Of a stretch of 64,000 nt of DNA, positions 8,229 through 63,734 are shown piece after piece. The DNA lies in the sequence record PZ445450.1, one strand, 5' to 3'. Source of the stretch: a phage. Position numbers and translations under genes: made by a program. The notes under the pieces are model-generated. The model saw only the letters and a program-made list of their open reading frames with translations. It did not search any database and was not told the origin of the DNA. How positions within the stretch are numbered: the stretch's first letter is position 1; the number at the start of each line of letters is the position of its first letter.

Positions 8229-8474
8229 ATGACTGAAGTAGTTGCTCGCGCAGGACAGAAAGTACGTTGTGTTGAAGTAGGTTTTGGTGGCAAAGGGTGT
8301 CAAAACTTGACTCAAGGTAAGGAATACGCTGTTATTTCTGGTGGTGGCGACGAAAGTATTGTGTTCGAGGGCCACATCCTGGATGCTGAAAACTTTGAAA
8401 TCTTTGACGACGATGGGGATCCGATCACCTGCCTGCTGGACGGGAATTGGGGAACTTTCGAAGTGATTGGCTAA
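8229..8474 (+). CDS. Hypothetical protein
   Basis: CAGGAGA RBS. Confidence 0.5.
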   Translation: MTEVVARAGQKVRCVEVGFGGKGCQNLTQGKEYAVISGGGDESIVFEGHILDAENFEIFDDDGDPITCLLDGNWGTFEVIG

Positions 8475-10152: not shown

Positions 10153-10167
10153 CATCTAGTCAACATG

Positions 10168-10198
10168 GCCCTGCCCGAAAGGGTGGGGCATTTTTGTA
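10168..10198 (+). terminator. Rho-independent terminator
   Basis: Same hairpin as at 19-46, followed by a T-tract. Confidence 0.65.
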
Positions 10199-13693: not shown

Positions 13694-14005
13694 TATTTTT
13701 AAGTTATCAGGTTGCTAGAGATCAGGAGGATTTCTAAAATGGATTTCCTCCTTTTGATATTTCACCGGACCAGATATTTTAAAATTCTTAGAAAATCAGA
13801 AAATGGATCGAAAACTAAAATGGATTTTTCAGAGTAGGCGCGACAAGCTGAATCGCTCATCCTATCGTTTGCACCATATTCTAGACCACCATTACAGATT
13901 TCCCGCACATGCTCACATCCTTCTACTAGAACTTCCTCCACTTACCCTTGACTTTTTATGGTAATAGTCTAACCACTATCTTGAGGTTGCGGTACAGCTT
14001 TCCGG

Positions 14006-14092
14006 GTACTCGATCTGTTTTTCGTTTCAAAGATTGAATTTTCTGAAAATTTTTCTCGATAAATTTCTCAGTACTCGATCTGTTTTTCGTTT
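14006..14092. repeat. Direct repeats of gtactcgatctgtttttcgttt (2 copies 65 bp apart) within an AT-rich, repeat-dense intergenic region
   Basis: Exact 22-nt copies at 14006 and 14071; flanking aaatggat(t)ttt and ttttctgRaaat motifs repeated. Confidence 0.6.
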
Positions 14093-14328
14093 TCTGAATC
14101 GGATTTTCTGGAAATCGTTCCGGAGCTCGACCTGAAATTTTTGGGGACGAAATCGATTTTTCGTTTTCAGAAATGGATTTTTAAAATTTCTATATGGGAA
14201 TATTTTATAGGATACTGTTTTATAGGAAATTGTTACGGAGGGTAATTAGCATGCTAATTAAATTTATTAAATGCGAGGAGTTCTCATTTAGAATTTTGAA
14301 TGATAATCATTCTCGTTTGCAGAATAAC

Positions 14329-14359
14329 GGGCAGGCCCGGTGATTGTCTCCCGGCCCCT
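14329..14359 (+). repeat. Conserved 17-nt element CCCGGTGRTTGTCTCCC, copy 1
   Basis: Same core at 14469-14505 and, inverted, at 23697-23743. Confidence 0.55.
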
Positions 14360-14468
14360 GTTGCCCCGGCTTGTTATTATAGTATCACACAGGACAAAGA
14401 AAGCAAGGACTTTTTGCATAAATTTTTAAATGATAATGATAACCGTTCTCATTTTATGCAGCGCCCAT

Positions 14469-14505
14469 CCCCGGTGGTTGTCTCCCCCGTCACCGGTGCC
14501 TGCCG
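14469..14505 (+). repeat. Conserved 17-nt element, copy 2
   Basis: cccggtggttgtctccc flanked by ccggtg/caccgg inverted repeat. Confidence 0.55.
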
Positions 14506-14675
14506 TCCTTTCGATAGGTATATTGTGCCACCTGGCGGGGCCGCTGTCAACACTTTTCAAAAAATTTTTCTAACCTGATGCGCTAACCGTTGCAACCTGG
14601 CGGGGCCAGCCTGGCAGGGGGGTGAAAGCTTGCAAACCTGGTAGTAGGGTAAACAATTGAAGAGGAGGTACAAAA

Positions 14676-14849
14676 ATGAAAGGTAATGCTACTCACCTGG
14701 AGAATGTAGCGATTAATGACGCTGAGGCTATCGCCCTGGTTGAAAAGGCTATGGCGGGAGCGTTGGAACATAAAGAAGAGTACGAAAAAATGGTGGTTAA
14801 CCTAGCGGGGGCGGCAGGTGGATTCTATCATAAAAATAATTTAAAATAG
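14676..14849 (+). CDS. Hypothetical small protein (57 aa)
   Basis: Strong GAGGAGG RBS; absent from the ORF track because under 60 aa. Confidence 0.5.
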   Translation: MKGNATHLENVAINDAEAIALVEKAMAGALEHKEEYEKMVVNLAGAAGGFYHKNNLK

Positions 14850-14852
14850 TCG

Positions 14853-14880
14853 TTGACAACAAGGTTAATCATGGTATTAT
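14853..14880 (+). promoter_or_regulatory. Sigma70-like promoter with extended -10
   Basis: TTGACA, 16 nt spacer, TG-n-TATTAT. Confidence 0.55.
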
Positions 14881-14930
14881 TACCCTACAAGGTGAACAAC
14901 ACCGCACTAACCAGTAAAGAGGATAAATTT

Positions 14931-15128
14931 ATGAACGCATACGGGATCAAAGTACGTTGCAACACTCGCCAGGTGGTCACCAATCAAGTGATTTGCCGGG
15001 TGGATGTAACCATCAACAACGGGCAAGGCCTTTATAAATTTCGTCGCGGTCATAGCTATACCCTGCAACAGCTTAATCGTTGCGCCCTGACAAAAGGTCA
15101 GATCAACCACTGGTTTAATAAAAAATAA
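14931..15128 (+). CDS. Hypothetical protein
   Basis: AGAGGA RBS before ATG 14931, downstream of the promoter. Confidence 0.5.
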   Translation: MNAYGIKVRCNTRQVVTNQVICRVDVTINNGQGLYKFRRGHSYTLQQLNRCALTKGQINHWFNKK

Positions 15129-15132
15129 ATAT

Positions 15133-15160
15133 TGACATGTAGTCTGAAACAAAATATACT
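15133..15160 (+). promoter_or_regulatory. Sigma70-like promoter
   Basis: A-tract, TTGACA, 16 nt spacer, TATACT. Confidence 0.55.
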
Positions 15161-15192
15161 GAAAGCACAAAAGACACTAAGAGGATAAAATC

Positions 15193-15591
15193 ATGAAAAC
15201 CACAACCTTTAATTTTGACAATGCTGACTTCTCTTTTTCTGATGTTAAAAGCTGCCGCCGTGATCGCGGATTCTACAAGGCCTATAATCTGGTTGGCCTG
15301 GACGATGATAATAATTTGCACGAAGTAGCGGAGATCCGGTACTATGCCGCCGCCAGCGGTAACACTCACTACTGTGTATTTTGGATTCACGACAACAAGA
15401 ACAATAAGTACGGTTATACTGGCGGCAAGGCGAGCGGTCACGGTTATGATAAAGCCAACGCTGCACTTGAAAGCGCATTAAGTGCCATGGGAATCACTGC
15501 CGACGGCTGGATCTATGAAGAAGAGTTTTTGGCGGCACTTGCTAACCACCTGGGCTATAAAAAGCACATTGTAACATGTGCCCACGAATAA
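15193..15591 (+). CDS. Hypothetical protein
   Basis: AAGAGGA RBS; 132 aa. Confidence 0.55.
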   Translation: MKTTTFNFDNADFSFSDVKSCRRDRGFYKAYNLVGLDDDNNLHEVAEIRYYAAASGNTHYCVFWIHDNKNNKYGYTGGKASGHGYDKANAALESALSAMGITADGWIYEEEFLAALANHLGYKKHIVTCAHE

Positions 15592-15599
15592 AAAAATTA

Positions 15600-15627
15600 T
15601 TGACACGCTGCAAAATTCAAGTAAACT
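15600..15627 (+). promoter_or_regulatory. Sigma70-like promoter
   Basis: A-tract, TTGACA, 16 nt spacer, TAAACT. Confidence 0.45.
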
Positions 15628-15675
15628 ATACACAAAAGGCGGGAATGTTTCCCGCCAACACAAAGGAAAAAGATC

Positions 15676-16071
15676 ATGAATAAGAACGTACGCCGCATCA
15701 TGAACGAACTGGCAAACGATGAAAAAATTATTGACATGCATTTAGTCAACATTTGCCGCCGTTGTGTAACATATAACAACCGCGCCGCAAAAGCGCGTGA
15801 GATGAACGCAAAAGGCACCTTAAAGCCTTTTCAGGTGGTTGTAAAATCTATAACTAATGCAGCAGGCCAGGCGCATGACCACAACAACGAGAGCACTAAT
15901 ATTGATCCGTCTTACGTAATGAAACGGATCCGGACTTGCAAGAATAAAGAGCAGGTGTATAACGTCATAGATTGGCTGGACTCCCTGGGCGATGTGGTTT
16001 ACAATAGGTTTTCTGCAGCCATCGAGATCCAGCTTGACAGATTGGACGGGAAAGTACTAAAAACTTATTGA
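15676..16071 (+). CDS. Hypothetical protein
   Basis: Leader hairpin gcgggaatgtttcccgc, then CAACACAAAGGAAAAAG and ATG. Confidence 0.55.
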   Translation: MNKNVRRIMNELANDEKIIDMHLVNICRRCVTYNNRAAKAREMNAKGTLKPFQVVVKSITNAAGQAHDHNNESTNIDPSYVMKRIRTCKNKEQVYNVIDWLDSLGDVVYNRFSAAIEIQLDRLDGKVLKTY

Positions 16072-16073
16072 GT

Positions 16074-16119
16074 TTATTTTTAGATGGCCTTGACTCCAGG
16101 GCCATCAATAAAGTAAACT
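16074..16119 (+). repeat. Intergenic palindromic repeat (GATGGCC-n10-GGCCATC), copy A
   Basis: ttatttttagatggccttgactccagggccatcaataaagtaaa; identical at 16695 and 20439. Confidence 0.7.
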
Positions 16120-16151
16120 AACCACAATTAAGCGGAAAAGGAGGCTTAAAG

Positions 16152-16271
16152 ATGAGCACTACACGCCAGCACACAAAGGTAACTATTATCGTTTGCATCA
16201 TTGGTTACATCCTGGCGCAAATGTTGATGGGTAGCGCCAACGGTGTAGCAAAATTTTTCTTAAACTTTTAA
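16152..16271 (+). CDS. Small hydrophobic peptide (39 aa)
   Basis: AAAAGGAGG RBS; one predicted TM segment. Confidence 0.4.
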   Translation: MSTTRQHTKVTIIVCIIGYILAQMLMGSANGVAKFFLNF

Positions 16272-16272
16272 T

Positions 16273-16300
16273 TGACAAGCTAACTTAGATCAGTATACTA
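16273..16300 (+). promoter_or_regulatory. Sigma70-like promoter
   Basis: TTGACA, 15-16 nt spacer, TATACT. Confidence 0.5.
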
Positions 16301-16350
16301 AGCACATAGACGGGAAAACTTCCCCAGACACACGAAAGGAGAAAAACACC

Positions 16351-16692
16351 ATGACTACTATGACCGCCGAAGAAAAAGCCCTGCAGATCGCCGCTCTGAA
16401 AAAACAGATCGCAGACCTTGAGAATAAGATCGATAACTTTGAAATCGACGAGGACAAGTACGACGAAAACTATGATGAATGGCTAGACGAGGTTTATGGC
16501 GAAATTATGATCGGAAACATTTCTTTTCTTCCGTCGCGTATCCTCAAGGAGTTAGATCCTATCGCTTACCGCTGCGGATTTAGCGACTACATCGACAGCC
16601 TGGATATTGAGGACGATGAAGAATACCGGGAATTACAGACAGAGTTGGAAGAAGCAAAAGAAGAGCTTGCGGAGCTGGAAGAAAACGAGTAA
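16351..16692 (+). CDS. Acidic coiled-coil protein
   Basis: AAAGGAGA RBS; Glu/Asp-rich C-terminus. Confidence 0.55.
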   Translation: MTTMTAEEKALQIAALKKQIADLENKIDNFEIDEDKYDENYDEWLDEVYGEIMIGNISFLPSRILKELDPIAYRCGFSDYIDSLDIEDDEEYRELQTELEEAKEELAELEENE

Positions 16693-16694
16693 GA

Positions 16695-16740
16695 TTATTT
16701 TTAGATGGCCTTGACTCCAGGGCCATCAATAAAGTAAACT
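16695..16740 (+). repeat. Intergenic palindromic repeat, copy B
   Basis: Identical 44-nt core. Confidence 0.7.
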
Positions 16741-16781
16741 TTATACTGTTAACACTGAACTAATGCATAGGAGTTAAAACC

Positions 16782-17027
16782 ATGGCAGCACTAATCACTA
16801 AATATTACGCCCCTACCAACACCAAAAGCGCCCGTATCATGGTAAAAGGCTTCGGACGTAAAAAGGTTTACACCTGGGATTATGCCTTAGACACGGAAGA
16901 CAACTACACCAACGCGATGACAGATTTTATTAATGAGCTGAACACGCGGATCTTGACAAATTATAAAATTACCGATATTGCCTATATAGGGGAAGGCGGG
17001 ATCTGTTTTGTCGGTATCGTCAAATAA
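16782..17027 (+). CDS. Hypothetical protein
   Basis: TAGGAG RBS. Confidence 0.5.
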   Translation: MAALITKYYAPTNTKSARIMVKGFGRKKVYTWDYALDTEDNYTNAMTDFINELNTRILTNYKITDIAYIGEGGICFVGIVK

Positions 17028-17103
17028 ACTGTTTTTTCGGTGGTCCTGGTAGCAGGGCCATCTATAAAGATAGTTTATCAATACAATGAAAGGAGAAAGT
17101 AAC

Positions 17104-17451
17104 ATGATCAGTGGGGCAAGTTTTATTATTGGCGCTATTGCTACGGCTTTAATTGTAAACAAGATCCAATCTAAAAACGAAAAAGAGAGCAACGCGCTCA
17201 CAGAATACCCATTTTGGATATTCAACGACAATGAAGACTACATTATCAAGTACAAGAATGAGAAGGGCGACCAGGTAACACCGCGACCGATCCCGGCCTA
17301 CAAGATGCAAGAAACACTATACCGCCTAAAGGCTGGAGGCGCAAAAATCGTAGACTTTTGGGGATATGATTGCAAGGATCAGGAGGTTATAAAACGGCGT
17401 ATCCGGGCTATTCAGGCCAATATTGAAGTTAGCAAGGGGGGGAATATATGA
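17104..17451 (+). CDS. Putative membrane protein
   Basis: AAAGGAGAAAG RBS; N-terminal TM helix. Confidence 0.5.
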   Translation: MISGASFIIGAIATALIVNKIQSKNEKESNALTEYPFWIFNDNEDYIIKYKNEKGDQVTPRPIPAYKMQETLYRLKAGGAKIVDFWGYDCKDQEVIKRRIRAIQANIEVSKGGNI

Positions 17452-17645
17452 AGATTAATTTTGAGAAGATTGTAAAGCGATCTCATGTTTCCGAAGAGCT
17501 GCCGGAACGACGCCAGCGTAACAATAAACTGAATAAGCCAAAAAGATTTGGAAAGATCTGGCGAAATCATTATGATCGTAAATTGCCTGGCCTACTTTTG
17601 GAACGTGAACGACAGGCAGAACGATACCGCCATAAAGACAAATAA
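17448..17645 (+). CDS. Small basic protein
   Basis: ATGA coupling; Arg/Lys-rich. Confidence 0.45.
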   Translation: MKINFEKIVKRSHVSEELPERRQRNNKLNKPKRFGKIWRNHYDRKLPGLLLERERQAERYRHKDK

Positions 17646-17652
17646 CAACCAA

Positions 17653-17683
17653 CGCCCCGCCATTGTGCGGGGCTTTTTATTTC
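17653..17683 (+). terminator. Rho-independent terminator
   Basis: gccccgc-cattgt-gcggggc followed by ttttt. Confidence 0.7.
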
Positions 17684-17826
17684 TATCCTACGAATAGCGC
17701 CCCTGGTTGGCCCTGTAAGCGCCAAAAAGGCCCCACCTATGCAATCGCCCCCCTTTAACCTGAAAACATCGCTTAGGGCCGTTTTATGGCGTTAAAAATA
17801 TCATTGACAGTGATTTTATTTAAAGC

Positions 17827-17854
17827 TTGACATCTTAAACAGGTTAGCTATACT
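17827..17854 (+). promoter_or_regulatory. Sigma70-like promoter
   Basis: TTGACA, 16 nt spacer, TATACT. Confidence 0.55.
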
Positions 17855-17886
17855 AACCACATCAAAGAGAGAAAGGAGTAAACGCC

Positions 17887-18147
17887 ATGCGTAAATTAAA
17901 AAATTTTGATAAAGTTGATGTTGTCCTGAATAATTTTTACTACTGCAACAACAAGGCCATTTGGTGGCGTGATAGTTCCACCGATAAAGTCAAGGCGCGC
18001 TTTCTCCAGGGGCACTGGCAAGGCCGCCCAGTGATTAAAATCATGGGGCAATTGGTAGCGTTTAAAAATTGCCGCCGTGTTGATGACGTTGAGGAGATTT
18101 TAAACATTTTGCGCCACAATAATTTAAAAAATAGTGTTGACAAGTAA
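17887..18147 (+). CDS. Hypothetical protein
   Basis: AAAGGAG RBS. Confidence 0.5.
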   Translation: MRKLKNFDKVDVVLNNFYYCNNKAIWWRDSSTDKVKARFLQGHWQGRPVIKIMGQLVAFKNCRRVDDVEEILNILRHNNLKNSVDK

Positions 18148-18164
18148 ATCTCAATAAGTATAAT
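18137..18164 (+). promoter_or_regulatory. Sigma70-like promoter
   Basis: TTGACA, 16 nt spacer, TATAAT. Confidence 0.55.
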
Positions 18165-18221
18165 TAAACACACAGGCGGGAAAACTTACCGCCACTAACA
18201 AAGAAAACAGGAGAAAATATC

Positions 18222-18845
18222 ATGACCACCGTTAACATTACCACAGGTTACAATTTATCTTTCGACGTGCTGACCGACGAACAAAAAGAAAAAGCCATTG
18301 AAATGGTACGCGAAAGAGAAGAACACAGCGGGGATGACTTTTTTGCAGAAAGTGTAATTGAACACTACAAAGAATATATCTTTCCAGAGTACGGCCTTGA
18401 AGATACCGAAGTACATTGGTCCGGCTTTTGGTGCCAGGGTGACGGCGCGTCAATCAGTGCTGAAAACGTGGATTTAGAAAAATTTTTGCGTAAAGTAAAG
18501 GCCCTGACCAAGTTCCGATCAATTCGTCACTTGTTCGGCACAATGCACGATGGCGAGTTATCAGCCAGTGTTGAACGCGACAAGTACAGCCATTACAGCC
18601 ATGAAAACACTGTAAGCGGATACATTGATACCACCTGGCTAGATCTGACCGCCAAACAAGAAAACAAAGTGGAAGACCTGGAAGAGCTGATCACCGAGAC
18701 GGTACGGGAGCTATCCCGCAAGGTTTACGTAGACCTGGAGGAGGCCTATCTAGAACAGTTCACTACCGAAAACCTGATCGGCCTTATTGAGGCCAATGAT
18801 TGGCGGTTTGATGTGGATGAATATGGAGAGATGAGTTTTTCATAA
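18222..18845 (+). CDS. Hypothetical acidic protein (207 aa)
   Basis: Leader hairpin plus CACTAACAAAG plus CAGGAGA RBS. Confidence 0.6.
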   Translation: MTTVNITTGYNLSFDVLTDEQKEKAIEMVREREEHSGDDFFAESVIEHYKEYIFPEYGLEDTEVHWSGFWCQGDGASISAENVDLEKFLRKVKALTKFRSIRHLFGTMHDGELSASVERDKYSHYSHENTVSGYIDTTWLDLTAKQENKVEDLEELITETVRELSRKVYVDLEEAYLEQFTTENLIGLIEANDWRFDVDEYGEMSFS

Positions 18846-18934
18846 ATAAAGTGTTGCAATAATCTAAAAACCTGCTATATTAAAACTCAAGGGGGCAAGA
18901 CGTTTGCCCCACACAAAACAAAGAGGAAAACATT

Positions 18935-19315
18935 ATGAAAAACACTACTAAAGCTATTGACACCGTTATGTTTAACCTGGTTACCTTTCGCGAGGATATG
19001 AAAGATCTTCCACGTGAAACAGTGTGCGATCACATTGAAAACTATCGCAAACTAATCAAAGAGTTGCCTTTAAAACGTGACCAGTATGCGGCTAACGCTA
19101 TGCTCAACGCCATGATCAAAAAGATGATTCAGTGTGATTTAACCCTGGCCTATGATTATGCAGGTGGTCGTTTTGCAGTATACAATCAGCCCGTGCCTGG
19201 TATGGGCACCACTGAAGAATTGCACGCGCTCAATCTAAAACAAGACGTGTGGGATAGTATGCCCCGCGTGGTGGTGTGGGCAGAAAGCGGAAAGATTTAC
19301 GGCGATAATTTTTAA
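18935..19315 (+). CDS. Hypothetical protein
   Basis: Leader hairpin plus AAAGAGGAAAA RBS. Confidence 0.55.
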   Translation: MKNTTKAIDTVMFNLVTFREDMKDLPRETVCDHIENYRKLIKELPLKRDQYAANAMLNAMIKKMIQCDLTLAYDYAGGRFAVYNQPVPGMGTTEELHALNLKQDVWDSMPRVVVWAESGKIYGDNF

Positions 19316-19325
19316 TCAGGTAACA

Positions 19326-19352
19326 GGCGGCATATTTGCCGCCTTATTGTTA
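19326..19352 (+). terminator. Rho-independent terminator
   Basis: ggcggcatatttgccgcc followed by ttattgtt. Confidence 0.5.
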
Positions 19353-19379
19353 AACAGAACTGCAAAAGAGGTACATAGA

Positions 19380-19751
19380 ATGGAATTTATTATTTTGGCC
19401 GTATTAGTTGCCTTGTTTAACGCCTGGATCGCTGGCAAGATGGGTAGATCCGCCTTTTTATGGTTTATTATATCTATTTTCCTGGGGGTGGTTGCAACTA
19501 TTGTACTTGTTATCCTTGCAATTGTTGACAAAGGCGATAATAGAAAGGGTAAAGTATTTTCCGACCTGTATGACGCGCAAACATTTGTCAACGCCTATTA
19601 TAGTGATCTTCCAGTCTCCCTACGCTGCAGCCTTGCACAACAGGTTTTCGATGAAGCTAAAACCAGAGATCACGCCCATGAGATTTGTTTAACTGAGGCG
19701 GATCGCCTATTTGAGAGGAATAGAAAATATGTGGGCCAGCCGTTTAAATAA
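19380..19751 (+). CDS. Putative membrane protein
   Basis: AAAGAGG RBS; two hydrophobic helices. Confidence 0.5.
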   Translation: MEFIILAVLVALFNAWIAGKMGRSAFLWFIISIFLGVVATIVLVILAIVDKGDNRKGKVFSDLYDAQTFVNAYYSDLPVSLRCSLAQQVFDEAKTRDHAHEICLTEADRLFERNRKYVGQPFK

Positions 19752-19974
19752 TACCACGTTAATTAATCCCTTTGATGAAGATTTGAAGCCAGCCGCCTGG
19801 CGTGATGGATTCAATAACGAACGCTTTATTTTCAGGCCTGATCTTAAGGAATTTTATAACAATGGATCGAACAACGACAGAGATAATTTTTCTTGTGATG
19901 TGCGTGGTGATGGTACTCCTGGGGGCCATTGTAAACCACGTCACTACTACCAGGATGAAAGGGGGAGACGATGA
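19729..19974 (+). CDS. Hypothetical protein
   Basis: GAGAGG RBS; stop overlaps next start (ATGA). Confidence 0.35.
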   Translation: MWASRLNNTTLINPFDEDLKPAAWRDGFNNERFIFRPDLKEFYNNGSNNDRDNFSCDVRGDGTPGGHCKPRHYYQDERGRR

Positions 19975-20090
19975 CAACCAAGGATAAGCCCCGCACCGAT
20001 AAGGTGCGCCGGGTTATGGTATGGCTTGAGATCATCGCCCTTGAAATATTGTTAGGCGTAGGGATGTATTTTATCGCTGTAAGTAACTGA
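19971..20090 (+). CDS. Small membrane peptide (39 aa)
   Basis: GGGGGAGA RBS; hydrophobic core; terminator follows. Confidence 0.4.
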   Translation: MTTKDKPRTDKVRRVMVWLEIIALEILLGVGMYFIAVSN

Positions 20091-20093
20091 TAA

Positions 20094-20126
20094 CGGCCCC
20101 CGATCCCTGGGGGCCTAACTTTTTCA
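20094..20126 (+). terminator. Rho-independent terminator
   Basis: ggcccccgatccctgggggcc followed by taactttttc. Confidence 0.65.
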
Positions 20127-20234
20127 AAAAATTTTTCTTCCGGGGTGTTGCAATCCGGTCCGAAATATGGATAATAATAATAATCAACGGGGAGCTAATC
20201 CCCACCAACACAAAAACCAGAAAGGAGAAACAAA

Positions 20235-20435
20235 ATGAGCAACAATATCCGCGTTATTAACTTCAAAAAAGAAGAAAAAATTGCCGTGCTGATTGACGGT
20301 CAAGAAATCTTCAAGGGCGACTATGAAGATCATCAAACGGCGATTAGTATCACTCGCGTGATTGGTTACCATAATTTTTACCCCCAAGGCGCTGAGGCAG
20401 CTGTTAAACGAATCAAAGAGATTGTAGGCCTGTAA
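20235..20435 (+). CDS. Hypothetical protein
   Basis: Leader hairpin ggggagctaatcccc plus ACCAACACAAA plus AAAGGAGAAA RBS. Confidence 0.55.
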   Translation: MSNNIRVINFKKEEKIAVLIDGQEIFKGDYEDHQTAISITRVIGYHNFYPQGAEAAVKRIKEIVGL

Positions 20436-20438
20436 AAT

Positions 20439-20484
20439 TTATTTTTAGATGGCCTTGACTCCAGGGCCATCAATAAAGTAAATT
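20439..20484 (+). repeat. Intergenic palindromic repeat, copy C
   Basis: Identical 44-nt core. Confidence 0.7.
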
Positions 20485-20528
20485 TAAACCCTGTTAAAAT
20501 ACCACGCAGTTAACAAGGAGTGATAGAC

Positions 20529-20828
20529 ATGTTTATCCAGGCTAATAATCTTTATTTCTTTGATGGTCAGATCGTAGACGGCGTGGAAGTAGAGATCACC
20601 GGGTGCCCTGGCGGTCAGGTTATGACTTTTCGGAATAATGCCTTTGATGATTCTCATATCGTTATGAGAATGGAAGTTAGTAAGCTGGACGATAAGAAAA
20701 CACTCATTGATTATTCCGTGAAAGATCATCCAGACTACCACATGATCTATGGCGATTTGTGCATTGTTGACCGTGACAAGGTGAACGGCATTGTGATCGC
20801 TATTGTGAACGATGTTTTCTCAAACTAG
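20529..20828 (+). CDS. Hypothetical protein
   Basis: AAGGAG RBS before ATG 20529. Confidence 0.5.
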   Translation: MFIQANNLYFFDGQIVDGVEVEITGCPGGQVMTFRNNAFDDSHIVMRMEVSKLDDKKTLIDYSVKDHPDYHMIYGDLCIVDRDKVNGIVIAIVNDVFSN

Positions 20829-20845
20829 TTTCAGCAGGTTATTTT

Positions 20846-21196
20846 ATGAAAGTAAAACTATATTACCTTAATGAGCTTAACCCCCTTGCCCAGGTCCGCG
20901 CCCTGGCTAATACCTTGATTTGTGAGAAATCTGTATATTGTGTTGAGATTAACGCCATGCGTGAACGTCTCAAAGGTGGTTACTTTGACATCCATGCTGC
21001 AATCAACGGCCTGAATATGGAATTTATCCGCTTACGTAACAGCCGCCAGAGTCTGGCAAGAATGGAACAAGATCCGGCCCACCTTCGTAAGCTGGTTATT
21101 GAAAACCATCTGATGTTCAATGCCGATGGCGATTATTACCATTTTCACCGTAAACGCTGGTACCGTAGCGGCAATATAGGAAATAATGCAAAATAA
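20846..21196 (+). CDS. Hypothetical protein
   Basis: 116 aa ORF, weak RBS. Confidence 0.4.
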   Translation: MKVKLYYLNELNPLAQVRALANTLICEKSVYCVEINAMRERLKGGYFDIHAAINGLNMEFIRLRNSRQSLARMEQDPAHLRKLVIENHLMFNADGDYYHFHRKRWYRSGNIGNNAK

Positions 21197-21397
21197 GGCC
21201 CCCGGCAGGGCCTACAGCGATATAATCATCTAAAGGCTATGCAACCGCATGGCCTTTATTATTTTGGCGTTACAGCGGCCCCAAGGCGCTTAAAAATTTT
21301 TTTAAAGAAGTGCTTGCATCAAGTCCTACAATATGGATAATAGGACGTGTCAGGGGGCGGCCCCCAATCATTAACCGGATAGATAGGAGTTAAAACT

Positions 21398-21682
21398 ATG
21401 GCTATTGTTACCGTTGGCGATGTAGTAGAAATGGAAGCCAAATACTTAAAAGCGGGTATGCATATCCTACGCAACGATCTTGAGCTAGTCCTGACAATGG
21501 TCGACTATAATCCCGGCCAGGATTATCCAAGCATCGACTACTTTTTTGAGTATGTTGATGAAGAGCTAAAAGAAGACGAAGCCTATTGCGGTGAATTTTG
21601 CAACTTCTTTTGCCCTGATGAGGTTGTAAAAGTTATCTATCAACCTGGCGTACCTTTCCCGTTGCACGCCATCAATAAATAA
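21398..21682 (+). CDS. Hypothetical protein
   Basis: Leader hairpin gggggcggccccc; TAGGAG RBS. Confidence 0.5.
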   Translation: MAIVTVGDVVEMEAKYLKAGMHILRNDLELVLTMVDYNPGQDYPSIDYFFEYVDEELKEDEAYCGEFCNFFCPDEVVKVIYQPGVPFPLHAINK

Positions 21683-21744
21683 GCCTAGCGGGGCCGAAAA
21701 GGCCCCTCCTGAAATTATGAAAAAATAAAGAGGGGTAAATCATC

Positions 21745-21981
21745 ATGATTGAACAAATTAAAAGCACTAAACCGAACGTTAACGGCAATGTTTCTCACTT
21801 TATTGGTGATAATGAAAGAGGGACACCGTACGCTGCGGTAACAGTTCAACCGAACGGGGATTATTGGTTTACTGTATACGGATCTTATTCTTTTGGGCGT
21901 CCGGTGCATGATAGAATTTTAAAAGTAGCTAATCCGACCGGGAAGAATATCACAGCAGAAAAATTTTTTGAAAATAGTTGA
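21745..21981 (+). CDS. Hypothetical protein
   Basis: AAAGAGGGG RBS. Confidence 0.5.
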   Translation: MIEQIKSTKPNVNGNVSHFIGDNERGTPYAAVTVQPNGDYWFTVYGSYSFGRPVHDRILKVANPTGKNITAEKFFENS

Positions 21982-22005
21982 CATGACCGTATAAGACTGT
22001 AGTAT
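21978..22005 (+). promoter_or_regulatory. Sigma70-like promoter
   Basis: TTGACA, 16 nt spacer, TAGTAT. Confidence 0.5.
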
Positions 22006-22233: not shown

Positions 22234-22318
22234 AATAGTTTGACAACAATTATAAATCGGGTAGAATGTATTTCGTAGGGCGGCAATGATGCCGCTCACA
22301 ACTAGAAGAGGGGTCATC

Positions 22319-25332: not shown

Positions 25333-26237
25333 TCTGCTCTTCTCCTACCATAAACGGCCCTACCTGGCAAGTGGAATAATTGACTAGCCATCAATCCCAC
25401 ATACTGTACAAATATACATGGAAAATAACTATTGCATAATCTTTCATTGTGCGGTAGCAGGGCCATTTTTACCCGTTTTCTCTCCCAAAAGTGCACGTAA
25501 TGCCGCTATTGCACAAATTTTAACCTGATGCACATATCCAATATCTTGTCAACAACTAAAAATCTTTATAAGTCATACACTTATACAGCATCGAAAGCGT
25601 GTTCTACGTGAAAAATCGAGTATAACTATAGCCGCCAGATCTCAGAATTCACGTACGCACGCCATTCTATAGCCTGCAAAGTATTTATTCCAACCACAGA
25701 ATAACGGAATAGTCAATACCTGCATAAAATAATTATTCGTGTAAACTGCATAACATAAATCAGCTCAGGTGTCAACATTTTTCGTAAACAGTCCGAAATT
25801 ATCACGATGAGTTATCATAAACAGAGAAATCTTTAGTCGTCTAATGTTTACTGTACATTACTATACTGACTGGAATCATTAGATGACTAAGAAAAAGATA
25901 AGAAATAATTAATAATGTAATTGTTTTATCTGTAACAATAAGGCAACCATGCAAACGAATGTCATGGCGCGACGGAGTCGCGACATAATATAAAAGCAGT
26001 AACCATCACCCCCGTGATAGTTTGTCTGCAATCTATTATTCAGATCATAGTTGCCTTGTATTTAGTTAATCATGACATAACAAGCAAGGCAACTATAGCT
26101 CTGATAATAGTTGCCCTGCTTTTATATTATGTCATAGATTGTTAGCTTGTTAACTGTCAGCCTGTTGGCTGTTAGCTTGTCAATTATTAAATTGCTAATC
26201 TTTATCATGCAAACGAATGTCATGGCTTATCATCTCT

Positions 26238-63072: not shown

Positions 63073-63147
63073 ACCAGTAAAAACTTAAATATCTGTACTA
63101 TAAGGATTCGTATGTTTTATGTCCACCCCAGAGCAGAGGATAGTAAC

Positions 63148-63228
63148 TGTCCGTGATACGGACACTACTGTCCGTCACGCGGACACATCTGTCCGTAATA
63201 CGGACACTAACTGTCCGTGATACGGACA
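63148..63228. repeat. Array of four 17-bp palindromes TGTCCGT-nnn-ACGGACA at 21-22 bp spacing
   Basis: Copies start at 63148, 63169, 63190 and 63212; followed by an AT-rich tract with a 9-bp inverted repeat. Confidence 0.8.
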
Positions 63229-63734
63229 CATAAAGAATATAACTAAAATAACTAAATAATAAAAAAATAAAAGATCTAGTACTTATGGTACTAAAGTGCA
63301 TATACTTAACTTATGTAGAATATACTAGATCCTAAGTACCATGTTTTAAATTTATTACTTATTGTTGGTAGTGTCGGCCCTTCATTGGCACTCGCCTACG
63401 AGGGGCGAGATGCCGGGCCTCCATAGTGCACACAATGACAGAAGTGCATACATGCAGGACTGTTAACATGTGTGGGAGCGAAGCGATAGCGCAGGCCAAA
63501 GGCAGAGCACTAATGTTGACCACCGACGAAAGCTTGCCAGCGCCGGAAGGAGTCGGTTGAGAGACTCCCGCGCGAGTTCTGATAAAGTTTATGTGTGGAA
63601 ACTGACAAGAAGGCTCCTAAATCGCTCCACAGCTATATAAACTATACCAAGTAAGGCAATCGCACCAGTTTGATAGAAAAGCTCGTTACAAAGCGATACA
63701 GTGAGTTTTTCTATAACTTGAAGAGGAGGCTGCT

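Follow-up and report, generated by a model that had tools for sequence, protein, structure and literature searches.

The question raised by this locus is whether a short intergenic sequence that recurs in a phage genome is kept for what it does as DNA or for what it does as RNA. The stretch analysed (sequence record PZ445450.1; 64,000 nt, one strand, hereafter the window) is the early-gene region of a Vequintavirus, an rV5-like coliphage. A first-pass annotation had noticed in it an identical 44-nt cassette in three copies, each with a palindrome across a TTGACT hexamer, and had proposed either a repressible promoter with its operator or an RNA processing site. The selected feature is very probably an RNA hairpin transcribed from the + strand, and this is the statement about the cassette that is best supported. 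The cassette as a whole is explained best, though with modest confidence, as a promoter/stem-loop unit similar to the PeSLs of T4-like phages, in which the hairpin is predicted to be an intercistronic RNA processing or stability site.

The repeat and its RNA hairpin

The 44-mer was recovered as exact + strand matches at 16074, 16695 and 20439, with 0 expected (100 shuffles), and a repeat search gave a repeat unit of 49 nt (16071-16119, 16692-16740 and 20436-20484; S1, S2 and S3). The degenerate fourth copy that had been noted at about 17041-17070, between S2 and S3, was also found (S4, 17027-17075, 65% identity), with the palindrome at 17039-17062 carrying 2 mismatches. As had been described, the copies directly follow stop codons, the 44-mers beginning 3-4 nt past the stops at 16069-71, 16690-92 and 20433-35, while the distance to the next start was measured as 34-46 nt, slightly under the 40-60 nt given earlier. 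The palindrome GATGGCC-N10-GGCCATC is present at all three sites, but its arms are 10 bp long and not 7 (GATGGCCTTG / CAGGGCCATC, one G.T, with a 4-nt loop between them). The -35- and -10-like hexamers are likewise in place, but they are separated by 18 nt instead of about 17, and the third copy reads TAAATT instead of TAAACT. The copies and the sites linked to them are as follows.

16071-16119, + strand: S1, 49-nt bipartite hairpin at the stop codon of the open reading frame (ORF) 15676-16071; lower stem 16071-16080 / 16110-16119, internal loop 16081-82 / 16107-09, upper stem 16083-16092 / 16097-16106, loop 16093-16096; RNAfold -25.7 kcal/mol, z -5.96; covariance-model match 16068-16122, 78.5 bits
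16692-16740, + strand: S2, same hairpin cassette, right after the stop codon of ORF 16351-16692; upper stem 16704-16727; RNAfold -23.5 kcal/mol, z -4.5; covariance model 77.1 bits
20436-20484, + strand: S3, same hairpin cassette, after the stop codon of ORF 20235-20435; upper stem 20448-20471; RNAfold -25.2 kcal/mol, z -4.56; covariance model 80.8 bits
17027-17075, + strand: S4, diverged copy that keeps the two-tier hairpin, lower stem up to 13 bp; upper stem 17039-17062 (GGUGGUCCUG-GUAG-CAGGGCCAUC), no TTGACT, UA/CG in place of UA/UG; RNAfold -28.8 kcal/mol, z -6.06; covariance model 69.5 bits; pairs compensatory relative to S1-S3
16090-16119, + strand: promoter-like site in S1, with TTGACT (16090-95), an 18-nt spacer and TAAACT (16114-19)
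16711-16740 and 20455-20484, + strand: equivalent promoter-like sites in S2 and in S3 (TAAATT)
16120-16691, + strand: two-gene module between S1 and S2, with ORF 16152-16271, a strong promoter at 16272-16299 (rV5 P192) and ORF 16351-16692

On the + strand, all four copies are folded by RNAfold into one common two-tier hairpin, in which an AU-rich lower stem (7-13 bp) is separated by a 2x3 internal loop from a GC-rich upper stem (10 bp) that ends in a tetraloop; the energies lie between -23.5 and -28.8 kcal/mol and the z-scores between -4.5 and -6.1. The upper-stem arms of the RNA are GAUGGCCUUG / CAGGGCCAUC, one U.G included, and the lower stem is formed by the T-rich 5' flank of the cassette paired with its A-rich 3' flank. 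The structured part spans 49-55 nt per copy, and the part that is always paired is exactly the 49-nt repeat, with the upstream stop codon at the base of the helix. The - strand folds of two copies reached only -19.5 and -15.8 kcal/mol.

The four sites were collected from 16 phages and from 2 IMG/VR phages represented by 3 contig stretches, 69 copies in all, whose 55-nt structured parts comprise 35 distinct sequences, and pairs were counted. Among these distinct copies, 100% of the upper-stem cells are paired, the 4 upper-stem pairs that vary do so on one side and to G.U only, and columns 4-13 of the lower stem are nearly always paired, with two-sided changes at 4 lower-stem pairs (GC/AU/GU; UA/CG; UA/GU/AU; AU/UA). 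Overall, 92% of the cells are paired, and this falls to 35-55% if the pairing partner is shifted by 1-3 columns. For covariation, the score was 0.163 against 0.014-0.061 for the shifted structures, and 0/500 shuffles scored as high. The only difference between S3 and S1/S2 within the repeat, TAAATT for TAAACT, is offset by a g to a change opposite, which turns a lower-stem G-C into A-U, and the two S4 alleles differ by one pair, C-G versus U-A. The imperfect pairs (about seven cases) are all G.U in the + sense and A.C in the - sense, an outcome that by our own estimate has a chance of about 1 in 100 under random orientation. In a distant relative from IMG/VR (about 85% identity), S1 has acquired two 1-nt insertions, and these are located in the loop and the internal loop only.

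The cassette is also about 4-6 times less variable than its surroundings, with a pi of 0.035 compared to 0.147 downstream and 0.207 upstream, the latter value being inflated by small indels. The hairpin is retained in S4, where there is no -35. The loop reads ACTC, ACAC, ACTT or ACGC in S1-S3 and GTAG, GTGG, GTTG, GCTG or GTAA in S4. In phage Gotham (MT682716, L023 about 8390-8410, corresponding to window 16097-16106), a 5-nt deletion (GGGCC) in the S1 cassette removes the upper-stem 3' arm and brings the -35/-10 spacing down to 13; the deletion may be genuine or may be due to faulty sequencing at the hairpin.

The covariance model, run unfiltered over the whole 64-kb window, 22 kb of phi92 and 6.6 kb of T7, returned only the four known copies; its best T7 match is the RNase III site R1, but with E = 9. 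A search of positions 14000-22000 against Rfam 15 at a permissive E-value gave nothing near the gathering threshold, the sole match over a cassette being rhtB (23 bits, E = 2.3; threshold 55). When IMG/VR was scanned for CAGGGCCATCNATAAAG, the element was found in two Vequintavirus genomes only; 15 other loci with this sequence were rejected as chance matches, being within coding sequence and having no hairpin. In current annotations the element is absent or merely labelled as a predicted promoter.

Exchange between copies and likeness to PeSLs

The cassette copies recombine, in all probability, as is seen best at S1 and S2. All four sites are filled, at orthologous positions, in every genome examined except phage magaca (MN850612, isolated on K-12) and IMG/VR contig L009. 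The contig aligned to the window up to 16119 and again from 16692, the two alignments overlapping by exactly the 49-nt cassette. In a search of all GenBank phages, this junction was matched by magaca in a single 301-nt piece, whereas the other listed records need two pieces spanning about 920 nt. The junction alignment consists of the S1 upstream flank, one cassette and the S2 downstream flank, and 621 bp, the two-gene module plus one cassette, is precisely missing from magaca and L009, which are 96% identical across the junction and differ in their cassette loops. Judged from these sequences, the module was lost by exchange between S1 and S2 in a viable phage, magaca. Since the copies are 49-nt near-identical direct repeats, the cassettes very probably serve as sites of homologous exchange.

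Rare variants are also repeated across copies within a genome. The loop ACTT is found at S2 and S3 of rV5 and at S1 and S2 of JeffSchatz, the loop ACAC at S1 and S2 in both slur16 and inoa, and a G after the stem at S1 and S3 of PDX. This suggests gene conversion, for which recurrent mutation at the few free positions is the alternative. About 110 records match the cassette. An apparent variation in copy number (1-4 copies per genome in megablast) was discarded as an artefact, produced by single-base loop variants that break the 28-nt seed.

PeSLs are known in the T4-like phages RB49/phi1, PST/T4 and nt-1/KVP40 (Arbiol et al. 2010, PMC2839356; Comeau et al. 2014, PMC4122927). Each comprises a sigma-70 promoter preceded by an AT-rich tract at the stop of the upstream gene, a stem-loop, which can overlap the -35, and the Shine-Dalgarno (SD) sequence and start downstream; they are present in multiple copies in hyperplastic regions, where they mediate deletions, swaps and mini-circles, and degraded PeSLs with the stem-loop alone are on record (PMC2839356, PMC4122927). 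One PeSL stem-loop cut reporter expression as much as rrnB T1 did (PMC2839356). In the searchable literature, no PeSL outside T4-like phages was found to be reported.

The position of the cassette, the stem-loop overlapping a promoter-like site, the multiple copies and the cassette-bounded deletion are all those of a PeSL. It is intergenic among small early ORFs of a plastic region. An AT-rich tract lies at the stop codon of the upstream gene, a moderate match to a sigma-70 -35/-10 is combined in S1-S3 with a stable stem-loop, and the SD and start of the next gene follow. It exists in several near-identical copies, exchange between which deletes the intervening genes, and S4 resembles degraded PeSLs reduced to the stem-loop. 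The overlap of the stem-loop with the -35 is that of one of five PeSL subclasses, and here the -10 is overlapped too. The differences are that the phage belongs to the Vequintavirinae and not to the T4-like phages, that there are four copies only, within 4.4 kb, and that a two-tier hairpin of 20-23 bp encloses the whole promoter, in contrast to the short, terminator-like G(n)-loop-C(n) hairpin of PeSLs; moreover, no terminator design is seen here. By analogy, the likeness would be one of function and behaviour, with a hairpin that is RNase III-like rather than terminator-like. The cassette thus has clear precedents and is not categorically new, since the sequence features of PeSLs are present, the promoter to a moderate degree, and the differences are limited to the phage family, the copy number and the RNase III-like, promoter-enclosing hairpin.

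A second cassette type was observed in the same window at 15600-15656 and 22240-22296, in which a near-consensus early promoter is followed by a 5'-leader hairpin GGCGG(G/C)-loop-(G/C)CCGC(C/T), the whole reading TTGACA...TAnAnT...GGCGGG-loop-CCCGCC. Many copies of it, in families D1-D7, are found in phi92 (L035 11500-19700), so this type is common to two phage subfamilies. Like S1-S4, it is a repeated intergenic early promoter with a stem-loop; in contrast, its promoters are near-consensus and its hairpin lies downstream of the -10 in the leader, whereas the S-cassette hairpin encloses the promoter and lies upstream of the predicted start.

A proposed processing site, a possible promoter and competing explanations

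In the processing mechanism proposed, early + strand transcripts reading through from the upstream gene would form the hairpin at its stop codon, and host RNase III would make a single cut in the 3' strand of the internal loop, after the third base of that strand. The predicted cuts are between 16109 and 16110, 16730 and 16731, and 20474 and 20475, and, less efficiently, between 17065 and 17066. The upstream message would thereby acquire a protective hairpin at its 3' end, and the leader downstream would be released. As DNA, the TTGACT-N18-TAAAYT of S1-S3 behind its T-rich tract would restart transcription of the next gene at moderate strength.

The plan of the hairpin is that of the RNase III sites of T7. 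When the five early T7 sites (R0.3, R0.5, R1, R1.1 and R1.3) were folded, they showed an upper stem of 9-13 bp (9-10 bp in 4/5), a loop of 3-5 nt, an interior loop or mismatch (asymmetric in 4/5) and then a lower stem. The five sites were taken at their published cleavage positions, and in R1.1, which was checked base by base, this position is on the 3' side of the internal loop. Like the T7 sites, the cassette is intercistronic in an early + strand operon of a coliphage, and promoters adjoin the T7 sites too; both have about two helical turns and an asymmetric internal loop 10-11 pairs under the tetraloop. The UA/UG distal box (in S1-S3), the non-Watson-Crick pair 11 and the absence of GC at proximal position 2 are also common to both. 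The cassette differs in having no sequence homology to the T7 sites, a smaller internal loop (2x3 compared to about 4x5), a longer, AU-rich lower stem and proximal positions 1 and 3 that are off-preference, and its cleavage is predicted only.

E. coli RNase III substrates typically have two helical turns (Pertzev & Nicholson 2006, PMC1540722), and internal loops confine the enzyme to one bond, leaving a protective 3' hairpin, with at least 11 bp required from the cut to the tetraloop (PMC1540722). The distal box is a UA and then a UG pair; the proximal box prefers GC, AU/UA, AU and AU/UA, GC/CG at its position 2 being strongly inhibitory, and natural R1.1 has a non-Watson-Crick pair at its position 4 (PMC1540722). 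The cassette hairpin has 10 + 10 to 13 bp, or about two turns, backed by covariation, and a 2x3 internal loop right under the 10-bp upper stem in 4/4 copies, of the kind that restricts cleavage to one strand. In S1-S3, a U-A (U9-A16) and then a U.G (U8.G17) are present under the loop-closing pair, as in R1.1, while S4 has UA/CG; the middle box is C-G and G-C. Proximal position 2 is A-U and position 4 an A.A mismatch, both compatible with the preferences; pair 11 is non-Watson-Crick, as in R1.1, and the inhibitory GC/CG at position 2 is absent. On this architecture and by analogy with T7, RNase III-type processing at the hairpin is a serious candidate, if somewhat short of an even chance; a general 3'-end stabiliser and a protein-binding RNA are possible alternatives for the hairpin. 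The RNA processing site named by the first-pass annotation as one of two options fits a conserved, covarying + strand hairpin built on the plan of T7 RNase III sites.

Whether S1-S3 also act as promoters is about evenly balanced, and moderate strength is predicted from the sequence. The TTGACT-N18-TAAAYT of these copies has 9/12 sigma-70 matches with a spacer of 18 and is preceded by an AT-rich tract, the T-rich TTATTTTTA. The -10 lies 33-45 nt from the start codon, as in the strong promoters nearby, and PhagePromoter annotations are found at the S2 and S3 cassettes of phage Gotham (GenBank MT682716). In S1 the -35 falls in the upper-stem 5' arm and loop and the -10 in the lower-stem 3' arm. 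The loop bases A11 and C12, which complete TTGAC, are constant in the 50 S1-S3 copies with a 4-nt loop, whereas the S4 loop varies at 3/4 positions in the same genomes; the exception is the divergent IMG/VR S1, which has a 5-nt loop and reads TTGATA. A change of TTGACT to the consensus TTGACA is a recurrent variant. S4 has no -35 yet is equally conserved, which counts against the promoter, and the promoter cannot be why the hairpin exists. N4-type hairpin promoters and single-strand (Frpo-like) promoters were set aside for their different architecture (short stems of 5-7 bp, or the -35/-10 in the duplex stem).

Several observations weigh against parts of this account. The covariation includes few independent compensatory events (about five two-sided changes), since the copies are paralogues and close orthologues. 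The proximal box has U-A and G-C at positions 1 and 3, where GC and AU are preferred, and S4, which is missing the distal-box UG, is expected to be a poorer RNase III substrate though it is equally conserved. No Vequintavirus transcriptome was found in the searchable literature. Matches of 9/12 grade are frequent by chance in this AT-rich region (68 found compared to 41 expected), the surrounding promoters are stronger (10-12/12), the -35/-10 spacing is 20 nt in the divergent IMG/VR S1, and the cassette is absent, both as promoter and as terminator, from Table S4 of the rV5 genome paper. As for recombination, only one kind of cassette-bounded deletion was found, the deletion in magaca and L009 may be shared by ancestry or recurrent, and a repeat-induced assembly collapse at their junction is possible.

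PeSL stem-loops have been proposed to insulate adjacent early gene cassettes as transcription terminators or attenuators; such a role is unlikely here. The hairpin is stable and comes right after stop codons, with a GC-rich stem just past the stop as in intrinsic terminators, and the PeSL stem-loop that equalled rrnB T1 in a reporter is a precedent for this role. In contrast to intrinsic terminators, the cassette has no U-tract on either strand, be it after the GC-rich stem or after the complete hairpin; the helix at the hairpin's base is AU-rich and weak, and a scan that calls canonical terminators nearby (17654, 19325, 20095 and 21231) makes no call at the cassette. Since the U-tract is missing and normal terminators are present in the same region, the hairpin is not an intrinsic terminator, which agrees with the earlier statement that no T-tract follows in either orientation and that the cassette is not a canonical terminator.

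It is improbable that the cassette is no more than an early sigma-70 promoter, with a DNA palindrome across its -35 to which a dimeric (phage) repressor binds as its operator. The TTGACT-N18-TAAACT behind a T-rich tract, the inverted repeat across the -35, the PhagePromoter annotation at the site and the very strong conservation of the cassette would all be accommodated by it. However, the imperfections of the palindrome are G.T on the + strand only and never A.C, the + strand RNA folds 6-13 kcal/mol better than the - strand, and the covariation reaches a second stem beyond the palindrome. In S4, which is without the -35, the left arm differs at 3/10 positions and the right arm is unchanged, with pairing kept, and the centres of the 7-bp arms are 17 bp apart, so that half-sites would face different sides of the helix. 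No conservation of two-fold symmetric half-sites in the DNA itself, as an operator palindrome would require, was found. Of the earlier proposal of a repressible promoter with its operator, the promoter is plausible (9/12, PhagePromoter), but the operator is left unsupported by the asymmetries of the arms and by the -35-less S4.

Just as improbable is an RNA operator for a phage protein, either for a translational repressor or as a nut/put-like antitermination signal. The loop and internal-loop bases are nearly invariant among copies, beyond what a bare helix needs, and several terminators are present in the same early region. Against this, no likeness to an Rfam family was found, known antitermination RNAs included, the loop varies while the element persists, and no protein was found as a candidate for binding it. 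A palindromic repeat that is selfish or neutral, of the type of miniature inverted-repeat transposable elements (MITEs) or repetitive extragenic palindromes (REPs), spread by recombination and with no regulatory role, is the least likely explanation, because near-identical copies that recombine and variants common to copies within a genome, which suggest gene conversion, are opposed by four orthologous positions in all 16 phages (bar one cassette-mediated deletion), matches in about 110 records, conservation several-fold above that of the flanks with substitutions that preserve pairs, and a covariance model that finds no further copies in the 64-kb window or in phi92.

The PeSL-like cassette with a processing or stability hairpin is kept as the best explanation. 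Its fullest form, in which the same 49 nt are dual-coded as an early promoter in DNA and as an RNase III site in RNA, each copy ending or stabilising the upstream message and starting the next one while also being a portable recombination linker, is tentative and rather less likely than not.

Genomic setting and meaning for the rV5-like phages

The 5.5 kb round the cassettes has 90-98% identity to more than 100 Vequintavirus genomes (rV5, FFH2, FV3, SophiaRose and others), and outside Vequintavirus no DNA-level relative of this 5.5 kb was found except one short gene fragment. From about 10 kb to 27 kb, the window is a run of small + strand ORFs, nearly all annotated as hypothetical, with strong sigma-70 promoters and ordinary terminators between them (scan; rV5 Table S4). 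The genes adjoining the cassettes are on the + strand without exception, and the indels and allele swaps among relatives cluster in the cassette-bearing region. This part of the genome is early and plastic.

Other deletions were observed in the region. Phage YP-6 is without the 207-aa ORF 18222-18845 (window 18139-18844), the -35 regions of the promoters at 18137 and 18854 being joined (common ..AGTGTTG..), and other regional indels likewise end in promoter sequences. A perfect 21-nt direct repeat (CATGCAAACGAATGTCATGGC) is present at 25948-25968 and 26206-26226, and the 238-bp segment between is absent in phage FV3, which is another repeat-mediated deletion.

The 81-aa ORF 16782-17027, between S2 and S4, has homologues with 31-47% identity in unrelated phages (Seuratvirus such as CAjan, Pseudomonas KIL-like phages and Klebsiella podophages) and seems to be a small early gene passed between groups of phages. 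The protein search with this ORF returned unrelated phage groups only, and deeper orthologous intergenic regions for covariation were not reached by it.

Further repeats were noticed elsewhere in the window. Two almost identical terminator hairpins (GGCCCTGCCCGAAAGGGTGGGGC plus a T-run) are located 10 kb apart at 18-45 and 10167-10194, corresponding to the rV5 terminators t232 and t213. A palindrome GTCCG-N4-CGGAC occurs in 4 tandem copies with a spacing of about 21-22 nt at 63138-63229, near a switch of coding strand, and by its sequence looks like an array of predicted operator or binding sites. At 13999-14194, three direct repeats of about 57-74 nt (TTTC..GTACTCGATCTGTTTTTCGTTT..) occupy a stretch without convincing ORFs and, on their sequence, could be iterons or an origin-like region. 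Among the relatives, GenBank records of the MG0656xx series (e.g. L027 and A147) comprise 17-22 UNVERIFIED 'Campylobacter phage' entries; as these are 93-98% identical to E. coli Vequintaviruses, the host attribution appears doubtful.

Phages of the rV5 type are widely employed candidates in phage therapy and biocontrol, and to our knowledge no study has addressed how their roughly 100 small early genes are controlled. The analysis offers an explicit map in which four hairpins are placed together with the cleavage sites and transcription starts that are predicted. The idea behind PeSLs, that regulatory cassettes double as recombination linkers, is also extended beyond the T4-like phages, with a natural cassette-to-cassette deletion as the example. 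If the dual-coded cassette is real, the recombination linker would allow single early genes to be lost, gained or swapped, and PeSL-type gene shuffling would be a general design that has arisen independently in an unrelated family of large coliphages.

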